DNA of 64,000 bases. It comes from a virus. This document shows positions 16,096 through 27,602 of this stretch, piece after piece. Within the stretch, counting starts at the first letter, position 1. Every line of letters begins with the position of its first letter. The stretch lies in the IMG/VR virus record IMGVR_UViG_3300032235_000653, positions 1-64,000 of that record; one strand, written 5' to 3'. The translations under genes and the position numbers were made by a program. The notes beneath the pieces were generated by a model. The model worked only from the letters and a program-made list of their open reading frames with translations, made no database searches and had not been told where the DNA came from.

Positions 16096-16991
16096 TGTTA
16101 TACGAAGTCAACAACTTAGACATTGTAATTACCAGAAACTGCCAGTTAGATTGTTCGGGTTGTTTGACTTTTAGTAATCATAATAAAGCAAAAGAACACT
16201 TAAACTTAGAAGACAACTTAAAATATCTAGACTTTTGGTCTGATAAGCTTGATGTGAATACCATTCATATTTTTGGGGGCGAACCTTTTATGCACCCAAA
16301 TCTCTTTGATTGGGTATATGCTGTACGAGATTCTTTTAGAAAAAAACAAACTAGTAAAAGTAAAGCCATTAACATACAGACAAATGGTATAAAAATTTCA
16401 TCATACGACATAGATAAATTGCAGATTTTAGTTAATGACTGTAGACTGAGTATCAATATTACCATTCACAGTAAAGAACAATGGTATCTTGAAAAAATTA
16501 ATGAGGCCATTGCTGTCATTGAAAAAATTTACGGAACTGGTCATTGGGAAAAAATTAATCAGACTGATAAACGTTACGTAAATGAAAAGCGTATATGGGT
16601 GAGTGTAAGTGATCAGACTGAAAAAACATGGATTAATCATTATTTAGGTCATGGGAAAACACTAAGACCTAGCTTCGAATTTGACCTTTCACATTACGTT
16701 GCAAATCATTCACATTGTGAAGCCAAAGAGTACGTTCAACTTTATAAAGGTAATTTATACAAATGTCCGCCGATGGCAGTACTAGGTGAAACCTTAAAAC
16801 TTTATGATTATCCCAATCAATCTCAGTGGCAACCTTGGTTGGAATATCAACCACTATTTGCAAATTCCACTGACGAAGAAATAAAAAGTTGGTTAGATAA
16901 GCAAAAAGTACCTGAAAAATATTGCAATATGTGTTTTGGTTCGGAAGAGAAAAACATACTACACAGAATTAAAGTAAAAAAATATGAATAA
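16095..16991 (+). CDS. Radical SAM protein
   Basis: CQLDCSGC (CxxxCxxC), FGGEP, QTNG and C-terminal Cys residues (YKCP, CNMC). Confidence 0.88.
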   Translation: MLYEVNNLDIVITRNCQLDCSGCLTFSNHNKAKEHLNLEDNLKYLDFWSDKLDVNTIHIFGGEPFMHPNLFDWVYAVRDSFRKKQTSKSKAINIQTNGIKISSYDIDKLQILVNDCRLSINITIHSKEQWYLEKINEAIAVIEKIYGTGHWEKINQTDKRYVNEKRIWVSVSDQTEKTWINHYLGHGKTLRPSFEFDLSHYVANHSHCEAKEYVQLYKGNLYKCPPMAVLGETLKLYDYPNQSQWQPWLEYQPLFANSTDEEIKSWLDKQKVPEKYCNMCFGSEEKNILHRIKVKKYE

Positions 16992-18552
16992 AAACACCAT
17001 AGATGATCTGACTAGTAAGCAGAATGACTATGCAGTCTTTTTGCCTGCACTGAGTAGCTTCTATGCAACTTATGTAGGCAAGCAACGTCACGATCCTACT
17101 TACATTGATGCACAGCGTTTGCCTGCAGATTTTGAAAACGGGGTCGAAGGACTAAATTGGCTTAATAATAAACAGGGTTATTTTCATTATAAGTGGGCAT
17201 TGTACAGTGCAGGTCATGCTAACTTGGACACTAACAAATCTGATCCAAAAGAGGATATGGTTCGTAACCGTGATCCTAACACATTCGTCCTAGGCGACAG
17301 TGGTGGATTTCAAATTGGTAAAGGTGTATGGGAAGGTAATTGGAAAGATCCAGCTTGTCCCAAAGCACAAAAGAAACGCGAGCAAGTGCTTGCGTGGATG
17401 GATGCTTACATGGATCGGGGAATGATCCTTGACATTCCTGCATGGGTTGCCCGTAGTCCTGCAGGACAAAAAGCCACAGGTATTAGCACCTATGCCGAAG
17501 CAGTTCAAGGCACATATATAAACAACGATTATTTTATGGCCAATCGAACAGGTCGTTGTAAATTCTTAAATGTTCTCCAAGGCGAAAATCATACAGAAGC
17601 AGATGACTGGTATGATCGTATGAAAAAATACTGCGATCCTAAACAGTATAGTCAACCATTTAACGGGTGGGCTATGGGTGGCCAAAATATGTGTGATGTT
17701 CATTTGCTATTACGTAGACTTGTAGCATTGCGTTTTGATGGTCTTTTAGAACCAGGCTTGCATGATTGGATGCACTTTTTAGGCACTAGTAAATTAGAGT
17801 GGGCTACATTGCTGACAGATGTCCAACGTGCAGTACGCAAGTATCATAATGAAAACTTTACAATATCGTTTGATTGTGCTAGTCCATTTTTAGCTACTGC
17901 AAATGGTCAAATTTACTATGATGTGGTTACTCCAGACCGATCCAAGTGGAGTTATCAAATGCAACCTAGTGTAGATAATAAAAAATATGCTACAGATACG
18001 CGGGCCTTCCGTGATGCAGTATTACAAGATAACATCTTTGATACATTTTTGCAAAGTCCTATCAGCGAACGATTGAAAATTAACGATGTATGTTATTACA
18101 AGCCTGGAGACTTAAATAAAATTGGTAAGGAAGGTCGTACTAGTTGGGACAGTTTTAGTTACACTTTGCAAATGGGTCATAATGTGTGGACGCATATACA
18201 TGCGGTTCAGGAAGCTAATCGTCAATACGATTCAGGCAAGTATCCTGAAATGTTAGTGTCTAGCACTGCTGACAAAAAGAGTTTTAGACAGTATGATCGC
18301 AACTTTTTTAGAGATATTGTTAATGATATTTTTGCTACCAGTGATCGGGGTCGAGCAGAAAACCTTATCGAACACTATAGTAAATATTGGATGAGTATTG
18401 TAGGAACTCGTGGCGCGGTGGGCAAAAAAACTGTTAATGCAGGAACTATGTTCAACAATTTATTTGAAATAAAAGATGAAGATTTATATCATCGTGATGA
18501 CAGCGGATTGGACGAATCTAAATTAGATATTTTGGAGATAGACAATGTATAA
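16984..18552 (+). CDS. dpdA: DpdA/TGT-family 7-deazaguanine transglycosylase
   Basis: VLGDSGGFQIG catalytic motif, MILDIP, LNVLQG, MHFLG and SFDCASP; clustered with folE, queD and queE. Confidence 0.75.
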   Translation: MNKNTIDDLTSKQNDYAVFLPALSSFYATYVGKQRHDPTYIDAQRLPADFENGVEGLNWLNNKQGYFHYKWALYSAGHANLDTNKSDPKEDMVRNRDPNTFVLGDSGGFQIGKGVWEGNWKDPACPKAQKKREQVLAWMDAYMDRGMILDIPAWVARSPAGQKATGISTYAEAVQGTYINNDYFMANRTGRCKFLNVLQGENHTEADDWYDRMKKYCDPKQYSQPFNGWAMGGQNMCDVHLLLRRLVALRFDGLLEPGLHDWMHFLGTSKLEWATLLTDVQRAVRKYHNENFTISFDCASPFLATANGQIYYDVVTPDRSKWSYQMQPSVDNKKYATDTRAFRDAVLQDNIFDTFLQSPISERLKINDVCYYKPGDLNKIGKEGRTSWDSFSYTLQMGHNVWTHIHAVQEANRQYDSGKYPEMLVSSTADKKSFRQYDRNFFRDIVNDIFATSDRGRAENLIEHYSKYWMSIVGTRGAVGKKTVNAGTMFNNLFEIKDEDLYHRDDSGLDESKLDILEIDNV

Positions 18553-23420: not shown

Positions 23421-24167
23421 ATGACAAACAAAAAAGAAACAGGACTGGACGCTATGTATGGCGACAGTGGATACTCAGAAGGCTACCTAGGTGGCGTTAT
23501 TCGTGCCAGAATGAAACGTGAAGGTAAACGTTTCTGGGCAGGTGACAACATCAGCGAATACATTAATGAATCTGAAAAAGAAGTGTTAATTAACGAAGCA
23601 ACAGAAGCATTTGAACTAGTGCTTGACCGTTTGCTTATTGATCGCAAAAACGATCCTAACAGTAAAGGTACAGCAAGGCGACTTGCAAAAATGTACTTTA
23701 ATGAAATAATGGCAGGCAGATATGATTCGCCTCCAGATTGTACAGCATTTCCAAATGACAGTGAGGATAGATATGAAGGCATGTTGGTTGTTCGTAGTGA
23801 GTTGCGTAGTATGTGTAGTCATCATCACCAACCCGTTGCTGGCGTTGCTTATATTGGTATTATTGCCGCTGAGAAACTTATTGGCTTATCGAAGTATACA
23901 CGTATCGCGCAGTGGTGTGCAAGAAGAGGCACTCTCCAGGAGGAATTGGCTAATGATATCGCTAGGGAAATACAAAAGGCCACCGGCGCGAAAGATGTAG
24001 GAGTTTACATTCAAGCGGTGCACGGATGTTGCGAAAATCGAGGAATTATGGCACATAGTAGTTTAACACAGACCACAGTGTTAAAAGGTGCTTTTAAAGA
24101 CGATGCAGGCACTAAGAAAGAGTTTTTCGACAATATTAAATTACAACAGGACTTTGCACCACGATGA
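23421..24167 (+). CDS. folE: GTP cyclohydrolase I
   Basis: SMCSHHHQP, IGLSKYTR, LQEEL and HGCCENRG. Confidence 0.95.
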   Translation: MTNKKETGLDAMYGDSGYSEGYLGGVIRARMKREGKRFWAGDNISEYINESEKEVLINEATEAFELVLDRLLIDRKNDPNSKGTARRLAKMYFNEIMAGRYDSPPDCTAFPNDSEDRYEGMLVVRSELRSMCSHHHQPVAGVAYIGIIAAEKLIGLSKYTRIAQWCARRGTLQEELANDIAREIQKATGAKDVGVYIQAVHGCCENRGIMAHSSLTQTTVLKGAFKDDAGTKKEFFDNIKLQQDFAPR

Positions 24168-26113: not shown

Positions 26114-26448
26114 TAGCACTACCCCCAGGCTGTACTGTGGTTTATCCTATATGGATAGACATCGATAAATTAACCAAAGATATAATCGATTGGTACGAAC
26201 AAATAGATGGTCGTCAAAAAATCGACACTTACTGGACTCATCGCGGTCGCAAACAGTCTGATGTTTATGTAGCATATGGCCGCGGTAAATGGTGTCATCA
26301 TCATCAAAATGGCGAAGGTGGTACTAGGTTGCATTTTAATGGGGAAGATGCTAGTATTGCATCTATGTTTATTATAAAATTTTTAGATAAAATAACCAAT
26401 CACAATCTTAAAGAACACATGGAGAGAAAAGAAAATGAATGTTACTAA
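26110..26448 (+). CDS. Hypothetical protein (F-x-L-K-W-like family)
   Basis: IIDWY...LHFNGEDASIASMFIIKF. Confidence 0.55.
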   Translation: MIALPPGCTVVYPIWIDIDKLTKDIIDWYEQIDGRQKIDTYWTHRGRKQSDVYVAYGRGKWCHHHQNGEGGTRLHFNGEDASIASMFIIKFLDKITNHNLKEHMERKENECY

Positions 26449-26956
26449 CAAAGAATATCACGGTCTTGTTGCAAAAATTTGCAGGGATATTGCTAATAGT
26501 GGATGGCGACCAGACTACGTTGTAGGCATTGTTCAAGGCGGTCTTGTGCCAGCTGTAATGATCGGTAATTACTTTAATATTCCAGTGAATACTTTAAGCA
26601 AAGAAGAAAGTAACTTGTGGATGGCCGAGGATGCATTTGGGTATGTAACATCATCTACCACACCGCGTCCCGCTGGAGAAGTTACAACTGATCCTAGTAC
26701 ACGTAAAAATATTCTAATTGTCAATGACATCAACAACACTGGTAACACTATTAATAATCTCATGGAAGATTGGCGTTCCGGATGTTTACCCAACGATCCA
26801 ACTTGGAAAGACATTTGGAATAATAACGTTAAGTTTGCTGTAGTATACGACAATGTTAGCAGCAAATCAAAAGTTACTGTAGACTTCTGCGGAGAAGAAA
26901 TCGCTAAGAGTAAAAAAGAACGCATAGTATTTCCTTACGAAAATTGGTGGGTATAA
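26435..26956 (+). CDS. Type I phosphoribosyltransferase-like protein (XGPRT-like, altered motif)
   Basis: PDYVVGIVQGGLVPA, ILIVNDINNTGNT and IVFPYE. Confidence 0.75.
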   Translation: MNVTNKEYHGLVAKICRDIANSGWRPDYVVGIVQGGLVPAVMIGNYFNIPVNTLSKEESNLWMAEDAFGYVTSSTTPRPAGEVTTDPSTRKNILIVNDINNTGNTINNLMEDWRSGCLPNDPTWKDIWNNNVKFAVVYDNVSSKSKVTVDFCGEEIAKSKKERIVFPYENWWV

Positions 26957-27047
26957 ATACTTGCTCAAGAGGACTTTAATGGCATTCATCCCTCTATAAA
27001 AATTCTGCATGTCATCAAACTTGCTACTTACACAAAGGAGACTAGAG
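26952..27047 (+). promoter_or_regulatory. TATAAATA late promoter followed by a preQ1-I-like riboswitch candidate
   Basis: TATAAATA 26952-59; P1 AGAGG/CCUCU (26968-72/26991-95); CAUCCC at the loop end; AUAAAAA tail; pseudoknot AUGGCA/UGUCAU; directly upstream of queD. Confidence 0.6.
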
Positions 27048-27602
27048 ATGGCAAAATCCTCAACAGCTGATTTAATCAGACACTTAGAAAATAACCTTCC
27101 TTACATAGGCCCAGTCAGTTACAAATATACTAGCACTAAAGAGTATCATGATGCCTTTCCCTGTGCCTATCGTCAGTGGCGAGCAGACAGCCATTGTAAC
27201 TTAATCCACGGGTACAGCTTCTCAATGAAGTTCTATTTTGGTACAGACAACCTCGATGTTCGAAACTGGGCGGCTGACTACGGTGGACTCAAAGAACTTA
27301 AAAAAATCTTAGAAGATCAATTTGATCATACCTTGATCGTAGCACAAGATGATCCAGAACTGGAAACATTCAAGATGCTACAAGAAAAGAAAATGGCCAA
27401 GATTGTAGTGCTACCACGCCTGGGCTGTGAAGGACTTGCGGATCAACTCTACAAGTTTGTCAACGGTGTTTACATTCCGGAATATTGGGGCCCGGGTGAG
27501 GCAGAGCGTTTATGGTGCTACCGTGTAGAAGTTCGCGAGACACAGGCCAATATGGCTTTCCGCGAAGGTCATCGTGAATGGAACGAAGATTTATTTGAAT
27601 GA
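27048..27602 (+). CDS. queD: 6-carboxy-5,6,7,8-tetrahydropterin synthase
   Basis: HCNLIHGYS, DYGGLK, FDHTL, GCE and VEVRET; ATG 27048 follows AGGAG. Confidence 0.88.
   Translation: MAKSSTADLIRHLENNLPYIGPVSYKYTSTKEYHDAFPCAYRQWRADSHCNLIHGYSFSMKFYFGTDNLDVRNWAADYGGLKELKKILEDQFDHTLIVAQDDPELETFKMLQEKKMAKIVVLPRLGCEGLADQLYKFVNGVYIPEYWGPGEAERLWCYRVEVRETQANMAFREGHREWNEDLFE

Follow-up and report, generated by a model that had tools for sequence, protein, structure and literature searches.

The leader of a queD-like gene was analysed in a stretch of 64,000 nucleotides (the window; positions 1 to 64,000 of IMG/VR virus record IMGVR_UViG_3300032235_000653), and it was found to contain an H-type RNA pseudoknot at window positions 26968-27015. 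On comparative sequence evidence, this element is a real, widespread and uncatalogued phage RNA pseudoknot, maintained by compensating base changes in hundreds of uncultured phages. It is most likely an ON-type riboswitch with a design related to that of the class I prequeuosine-1 (preQ1-I) riboswitches. We think it rather probable that the element controls translation of the queD-like mRNA in cis, as a riboswitch-type switch at its 5' end, with a preQ1-I-like aptamer whose ligand would turn translation ON. More tentatively, it may represent a new riboswitch class, so far confined to uncultured phages, in which a preQ1-I-like pocket would bind a guanine-faced metabolite other than preQ1 and turn QueD translation ON.

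A preQ1-I-like variant lying between a late promoter and queD had been proposed from the letters of the window (the original prediction). All of the sequence elements on which that proposal was built are present (26952-59, 26968-72, 26991-95, 26996-27005, 27010-15, 27036-40 and the ATG at 27048). The parts of the pseudoknot, with the ribosome-binding site (RBS) and the gene that follow it, are as below.

26968-26972, plus strand: 5' strand of helix P1 (AGAGG), pairing with 26991-26995; 100% paired in 111 distinct sequences
26973-26978, plus strand: loop L1 (ACUUUA), with a variable first base (never G), an invariant C-U and then a spacer of variable length
26979-26988, plus strand: 5' strand of helix P2 (AUGGCAU-U-CA), pairing with 27006-27015 by covariation
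26989-26990, plus strand: loop L2 (UC; U26989, C26990), in which C26990 is the invariant unpaired C at the P1/P2 junction
26991-26995, plus strand: 3' strand of P1 (CCUCU), from the covariation alignment
26996-27005, plus strand: loop L3, A-rich, 10 nt (AUAAAAAUUC); consensus W-U-A-H-A-W-A-Y-U-C from per-position counts
27006-27015, plus strand: 3' strand of P2 (UG-C-AUGUCAU; UGCAUGUCAU), from covariation
27036-27040, plus strand: Shine-Dalgarno sequence AGGAG, 7 nt 5' of the ATG at 27048 and enclosed in the anti-start hairpin described below
27048-27602, plus strand: the regulated gene, QueD-like, of the 6-carboxytetrahydropterin / 6-pyruvoyl-tetrahydropterin synthase (PTPS) family; 184 aa, CxxxHGY motif

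AGAGG and CCUCU flank an 18-nt loop, a frame that had been likened to that of the B. subtilis queC aptamer. P2 in the window consists of seven pairs, then a U-C mismatch (U26986/C27008) that is conserved among relatives, then a C-G and an A-U pair. The sequence UGUCAU at 27010-15 lies inside its 3' strand. The 6-bp loop-tail pseudoknot that the original prediction had considered possible was borne out by covariation and is in fact longer, joining 26979-88 to 27006-15 through seven plus two pairs. C26990 is the candidate ligand-pairing base.

Two alignments were used, one of 53 distinct aptamers and a second of 111 distinct homologous leaders. P1 was paired in 100% of cells in both, with compensatory changes in three of its five pairs (pair types AU/UA, GC/CG/UA and CG/AU/UA), and its two top pairs were G-C in 111 of 111 sequences. 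P2 kept a fixed register and was 78-81% paired, with both-sided changes in 6-7 of nine pairs; in the 111-sequence alignment these values were 81% and six of nine. Pair 25-50 of alignment A2, for example, was UA 49 times, AU 22, CG 15 and GC 11, and the CA/UG pairs of P2 changed in step to CG/CG. The covariation score of the 111 sequences was 0.289 compared to 0.101 after shuffling, none of 500 shuffles reached 0.289, and the score was at most 0.068 with partners slid. Taking both alignments, scores of 0.29-0.32 compare with 0.10-0.12 for shuffled sequences and at most 0.076 when partners were slid by 1-3 columns. Covariation of both helices across phage queD leaders, a check named in the original prediction, is therefore well supported in 111 distinct relatives. 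The conserved core pattern occurred once in the window and was absent from 100 shuffles of it.

Base conservation was counted in leaders that had been picked via the protein, and so without bias from the RNA pattern (49 + 16 + 3 distinct leaders). The junction base was C in all of them, and the base before it was U in the majority and otherwise C or A. The first base of L1 was A, C or U only, the second was C in 100% and the third was U in 100%. A G never occurred at the first position, where it could pair with the junction C. L3 followed the pattern W-U-A-H-A-W-A-Y-U-C, in which A was fixed at positions 3, 5 and 7. The unpaired bases of the element are conserved more strongly than its stems, as would be typical of a ligand pocket. 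The leader thus combines conservation, covariation and conserved unpaired nucleotides, a combination generic to riboswitches.

Two kinds of deviating copy were also observed. A single lineage in which U replaces the junction C was found across the viral collection (L433:6700-6860, minus strand, with L429 and L430; the sequence is identical in all three). P1, P2 and L3 are intact in this variant and an 8-bp anti-start helix is kept; it sits between a TTGACA-17-TATACT promoter and a 194-aa PTPS-family gene. This lineage could represent altered specificity or decay of the copy, and it offers a natural test case for specificity. In L010:67-193, the P2, L3 and P1 3' parts are kept with no complementary P1 5' strand, and this copy may mark a recombination break or be degenerate.

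Linkage of the element to queD-family genes is strict. A protein-based search with the QueD-like protein yielded more than 598 viral contigs, and in the 80 loci fetched from these the element was just 5' of the gene in 79, the lone exception being a truncated locus. By covariance model, it was present in 77 of 80 loci of the marine QueD class, with the remainder truncated, and in just 10 of 80 loci of the canonical class. A degenerate core pattern matched at least 120 viral contigs. Among the matches listed with intact P1 and P2, nearly all lay 20-40 nt upstream of a PTPS/QueD gene, and the linked proteins were 28-95% identical to the window protein, with CxxxHGY forms plus one canonical CxxxHGH form. 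The covariance model built from the alignment found exactly one copy in this record. Five related contigs of 286-383 kb, of which four have a completeness of 95% or more, likewise hold a single copy each, always at queD. These five are jumbo phage genomes (G001-G005, via L011, L049, L020, L080 and L176) in which QueD stands behind the element. The abundance in public viral contigs is at least several hundred to a thousand instances.

The element occurs in freshwater and marine viral contigs, so far only from uncultured phages. The covariance model gave no match in eight cultured-phage queD leaders, most of which lack any leader, and BLAST of two motif variants against cultured phages returned nothing relevant (one weak, unrelated match). 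No description of this element was found in literature searches, and no public RNA sequencing run is listed as containing the locus. In two contigs a further gene lies between the element and queD, a 113-aa cupin gene in L224 (6409-6750, minus strand) and a 243-aa methyltransferase-like open reading frame (ORF) in L239 (4432-5163). In both, a small operon is headed by the element.

A bacterial origin was considered and rejected. The pattern scan of 185,579 prokaryote species genomes gave 50 matches, of which about seven were genuine; all of these were on short or phage-like contigs of metagenome-assembled genomes (MAGs) with QueD encoded immediately behind the element, and in no case was the context that of a bona fide chromosome. 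Bacteroidota MAG contigs carrying element and queD were L087, L093, L101, L113 and L129 (Chitinophagales, Crocinitomicaceae, Haliscomenobacter and an unclassified Bacteroidetes bin), and L099 and L115 were in a marine 'Rickettsiales' MAG. The MAG copies are probably phage contigs binned with bacteria and give at best weak host hints.

The minimum-energy nested fold of the leader pairs the tail of the pseudoknot with the start of the gene, so that the start codon is masked and the Shine-Dalgarno sequence enclosed. The two arms of this anti-start helix are the following.

27010-27016, plus strand: 5' arm (UGUCAUC), from the minimum-energy fold; shares 27010-15 with the 3' strand of P2
27047-27053, plus strand: 3' arm (GAUGGCA), including the start codon at 27048-50, from the minimum-energy fold and pair counts

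The 3' strand of P2 takes up six of the seven tail bases, which makes P2 and the anti-start helix mutually exclusive. Both helices exist and covary, and they share nucleotides. When the region from tail to start was folded, tail-RBS pairing was seen in every one of the 163 distinct leaders. Pair counts showed covariation of the anti-start helix at -1 (C-G 44, U-A 14), +4 (C-G 12, U.G 31, U-A 13) and +6 (U-A 34, A-U 9), and position +5 was G-C in 56. The anti-RBS role of the P2 3' strand recurs in at least four different platform designs. The first pairs G-Y-C-A-U-C with G-A-U-G-G-C, the second G-Y-C-A-U-U-G with C-A-A-U-G-G-C, and the third is a marine version with eight pairs. In the fourth a C-C-U-A-U-G / C-A-U-A-G-G hairpin masks the Shine-Dalgarno sequence, often extended by U-G-C-Y pairing with G-G-C-A after the AUG. 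Calculated duplex energies were -8.0 ± 2.2 kcal/mol for tail:RBS and -6.3 ± 1.5 kcal/mol for P2. The slightly stronger average of tail:RBS fits a default-OFF state that would be tipped by extra stabilisation of the knot.

It is again generic to riboswitches that alternative structures exclude each other and that one of them governs access to the RBS; given this exclusion, the knot should turn translation ON. In the mechanism that we propose, the A-rich L3 of the aptamer would lie along the 5-bp P1, and a guanine-faced ligand would pair with C26990 and stack at the P1/P2 junction. Without ligand, the tail (27010-16) would be held by the start-codon region (27047-53), with the start codon masked and the Shine-Dalgarno sequence inside the hairpin. 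With the ligand bound, this tail would instead dock onto the loop strand so that P2 forms, and formation of P2 would free the RBS and turn QueD translation ON. We infer small-molecule binding, the identity of the ligand and the ON direction. The original prediction had expected feedback control, that is, repression by the end product; this expectation was not supported, as the platform, in which the P2 3' strand is also the anti-start strand, implies that ligand would act as an ON signal.

A coding explanation of the region, in which an in-frame ATG at 27009 extends the ORF across the element, was rejected. The Shine-Dalgarno sequence stands 7 nt before the ATG at 27048, the proteins of relatives align from 27048, and other platform types have no ATG corresponding to 27009. 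Variation across the region is compensatory, with indels that are not multiples of three.

Promoter-like boxes just before P1 suggest that the aptamer probably begins a few nucleotides from the transcript 5' end. In the window the box is the following.

26952-26959, plus strand: TATAAATA, T4-late-promoter-like element; overlaps the stop codon TAA (26954-56) of the preceding phosphoribosyltransferase (PRTase) gene and ends 8 nt before P1

A TAAATA or TAAGTA box precedes P1 in 98 of 213 distinct leaders (46%), its end 3-20 nt away (mode 8, the spacing seen in the window), compared to 11 of 213 (5%) in a shuffled control. The octamer TATAAATA itself occurs once in the 64-kb window, where 6.9 occurrences are expected by chance. 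It is not recurrent in the window, and the late-promoter reading therefore rests on position. The label given in the original prediction is thus plausible on its recurrent placement before P1 and draws no support from the octamer count. Other leaders have sigma-70-like boxes, such as TTGACA-17-TATACT in L433. The plus strand of the window has four ATAAATA sites, each of which precedes a crudely called ORF start by no more than 110 nt (11% expected). In L013 (429-453) and in most 'type B' leaders (such as L012, L020 and L030), the hairpin masking the Shine-Dalgarno sequence (CCUAUG...CAUAGG) has a loop that reads TG-N-TA-N-N-A-T, which resembles an extended -10 box (e.g., TGCTATAAT). Such a second, internal promoter could yield transcripts without the aptamer and the anti-Shine-Dalgarno arm.

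These results bear on whether it is a small molecule or some other factor that decides between P2 and the anti-start helix. The pseudoknot could be a translational operator, bound by a protein of phage or host origin (possibly QueD) and comparable to the T4 gene 32 leader. The late-promoter-like element suggests a T4-like phage, the pseudoknot is at the 5' end of the leader, and QueD always co-occurs with the element, all of which would suit an operator. The RNA loops are nearly invariant, however, whereas identity of the linked QueD proteins drops to about 30% and both CxxxHGY and CxxxHGH subfamilies are represented. Late-like and sigma-70-like promoters in freshwater and marine lineages leave no single partner protein evident, and the conserved positions match the layout of the preQ1-I ligand pocket. 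A protein operator is weakened by the conservation of unpaired bases and also by the divergent linked proteins and promoters, and we regard it as improbable.

The element might also work independently of any ligand, as a 5'-end stabiliser, as a means of constitutive start-codon unmasking on a short promoter-proximal transcript, or as a temperature-sensitive switch. A P2 of 8-10 positions may form unaided, and the transcript is predicted to begin a few nucleotides before the aptamer; T4-type phages, moreover, use transcript-specific masking of the RBS. Invariant unpaired bases, a junction C with G excluded opposite it and a fixed A-rich L3 are not usually needed for such functions, however. The promoter lies upstream of both P1 strands, so that long and short transcripts alike would hold the whole element, and restriction to one gene family would be hard to explain. 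The conservation of the unpaired bases weakens this alternative too, and we consider it unlikely.

The Rfam search with the preQ1 model that the original prediction had put forward as a check did not recover the element. At the gathering threshold (39 bits for RF00522), no Rfam match fell at the element in a search of the whole window. Nothing relevant appeared at E ≤ 10 on the 221 nt around the element, or at E ≤ 5 on five other instances. RF00522 run on five phage genomes at E ≤ 10 gave only chance matches of at most 17 bits elsewhere and none at a queD leader, and a control genome scored above the cut-off in the same search. The proposal of a preQ1-I-like variant is supported by the layout (P1, junction C and L3) and not supported by the Rfam model, the L1 uridine, the length of P2 or the burial of the Shine-Dalgarno sequence.

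It is very unlikely that the element is an ordinary, divergent preQ1-I member that binds preQ1 and represses queD by feedback. Topology, P1 length, the specificity C and the A-rich L3 are the same, as is the pathway association. Against this, RF00522 finds no leader at E ≤ 10 in genomes searched alongside a positive control, the L1 uridine is not conserved at the preQ1-I position, and complete relatives have no recognisable QueC, so that preQ0 or preQ1 may not be phage-made. The Shine-Dalgarno sequence is outside P2, and formation of P2 would release the RBS instead of hiding it. A plain preQ1 OFF switch is contradicted by the architecture of the platform and by the failed model test.

Several observations weigh against an ON-type riboswitch. 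ON control of a biosynthetic gene by a product of its pathway is unusual, which implies either that the ligand is not the end product or that we have misread the logic. P2 is long enough that it could form in the absence of ligand, and the Rfam PreQ1 model does not recognise the element. When the tail was shuffled it still paired with the RBS in 61% (97.5% observed), a control that is only moderately discriminating, so that we rely on the position-specific covariation of the anti-start helix. The nested-fold energy of the leader is ordinary (z = +0.8), and the case for the element is for this reason comparative and not thermodynamic.

As for the ligand of such a riboswitch, the invariant junction C points to a guanine-faced heterocycle as the candidate. 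The specificity may, as suggested in the original prediction, be shifted away from preQ1. FolE, QueD and QueE are encoded by the phages. No Pfam QueC or TGT/DpdA was found above family cut-offs in G001-G005, and preQ1 is therefore not an obvious product. The pathway in these phages may end at 7-carboxy-7-deazaguanine (CDG) or use unrecognised enzymes. One candidate ON signal is the FolE product or another pterin, which would amount to substrate feed-forward sparing the folate pathway. Other candidates are CDG or preQ0, as 7-deazaguanine intermediates, and (released) guanine.

The record from which the window was taken derives from an uncultured virus and, at 99.8 kb, covers about 28% of its genome; the source phage is an uncultured lake jumbo phage. 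The original prediction had placed a riboswitch variant between a late promoter and queD, and the arrangement was upheld, in that a structured RNA which is conserved and acts in cis separates a promoter-like box from a QueD-like gene. The protein encoded at 27048-27602 matches PHROG QueD-like (1.4e-36) and Pfam PTPS (5e-14), with a weak PDB match to 7v0f, a 6-carboxy-tetrahydropterin synthase. It is followed by an SDR, then a MazG-like protein, then a QueE-like radical-SAM enzyme. A FolE gene is located at 23421-24167, giving the cluster order FolE...QueD-SDR-MazG-QueE. Neither Pfam QueC nor TGT was found in this record. A 522-aa ORF at window positions 16984-18552 had no match in Pfam, PHROG or PADLOC. 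The gene on the 5' side of the element is the following.

26435-26956, plus strand: PRTase, HGPRT/XPRT-like (Pfam Pribosyltran 6e-09; weak NCBIfam HGPRT/XPRT matches)

The PRTase is a conserved neighbour of the element, and the order PRTase-motif-queD is also found in L239. A purine-type PRTase gene repeatedly adjoins the 5' side of queD, in the window (26435-26956), in L239 (3783-4331) and in the cultured Synechococcus phage BUCT-ZZ01 (L265). The annotation in this last phage, which is without the RNA element, is xanthine-guanine PRTase. The recurrent position of the gene hints at a nucleotide-level step in the deazaguanine pathway.

Modification of DNA with 7-deazaguanines protects phage DNA from host restriction. 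To our knowledge riboswitches are rare in phages, none is known for 7-deazaguanine DNA-modification pathways, and all known preQ1 riboswitches are OFF switches. Should the element prove to be the new class considered above, it would be the first relative of the preQ1-I fold to act as an ON switch, and a phage DNA-hypermodification pathway would for the first time have a riboswitch of its own. A fold that ranks among the smallest aptamers known is apparently wired in reverse, with the docking tail doubling as the anti-RBS strand. The identity of the ligand would show what these phages monitor while rebuilding DNA bases, and what the product of a QueC-less FolE-QueD-QueE pathway is. At about 50 nt, abundant and with many natural variants, the element lends itself directly to ligand searches, to structural studies and to application as a compact ON switch.

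Among known systems, two from phage T4 share the setting. The leader of T4 gene 32 mRNA has a 5' pseudoknot that nucleates gp32 binding, and T4 late transcripts (genes e, soc and I-TevI) have their RBS unmasked via promoter choice. A T4-type phage, a 5' leader pseudoknot and RBS-hiding hairpins are common to these and to the queD leader. The T4 systems work through a protein (gp32) or through promoter choice, without conserved loops resembling a metabolite pocket, and unlike in T4 both strands of every helix here are downstream of the promoter. The SAM-II and SAM-V riboswitches, like others of this compact type, are small H-type pseudoknots with a loop-helix triplex and act as OFF switches, SAM-V being found in marine bacteria and metagenomes. 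The queD element shares their compact classical pseudoknot and differs in its conserved nucleotides and gene context, and gave no Rfam match to these families.

The closest counterpart in switch logic is the Vibrio vulnificus add adenine riboswitch, a translational ON switch with a known ligand and an alternative helix that sequesters the RBS. In both systems control would be purely translational, with the Shine-Dalgarno sequence or start codon masked without ligand and the masking strand withdrawn when the aptamer forms. The add aptamer, however, is a three-way junction with a known ligand, whereas the queD leader has a pseudoknot.

The closest counterpart in structure is preQ1-I (RF00522; B. 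subtilis queC, T. tengcongensis, C. antarcticum and E. coli). The preQ1-I aptamers are H-type pseudoknots with a conserved G-C pair closing P1 and a strictly conserved C just 5' of the P1 3' strand, which follows U in type I or A in types II and III (PMC11625349). They have a uridine (U6) at the start of L1, an A-rich L3 with one adenine that contacts the ligand, and a short P2 that buries Shine-Dalgarno bases (PMC11625349). The queD element is likewise an H-type pseudoknot within the same range of about 35-50 nt. Its 5-bp P1 has the G-C closing pair in all 111 sequences, and its invariant C is directly 5' of the P1 3' strand, mostly after U as in type I. L3 is A-rich, about 10 nt long and ends in C (Y-U-C here, A-A-C in preQ1-I), the 3' tail docks as P2, and the associated genes are those of 7-deazaguanine/queuosine metabolism. 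In preQ1-I, L3 lies in the minor groove of P1 and its ligand-contacting adenine is close to the 3' end.

The differences lie in L1, P2 and the platform. L1 here is N-C-U plus 1-8 extra bases, compared to UU or a U-C-type loop of 2-3 nt in preQ1-I, and its first base is not a conserved U (A, C or U; A in the window). P2 has 8-10 positions with the conserved U-C mismatch, whereas that of preQ1-I, with 3-4 pairs, is two to three times shorter and either buries Shine-Dalgarno nucleotides or favours a terminator. The Shine-Dalgarno sequence here is outside P2, which lies more than 20 nt upstream of it, and a third strand (start codon or Shine-Dalgarno) competes for the tail, so that an ON response is predicted in place of the OFF response of preQ1-I. 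As the L1 uridine, the P2 length, the Shine-Dalgarno burial and the model score of preQ1-I are all lacking, the element was not filed under RF00522. We read it as working like a preQ1-I aptamer, with ligand-promoted docking of the tail on the junction C, and with its output inverted.

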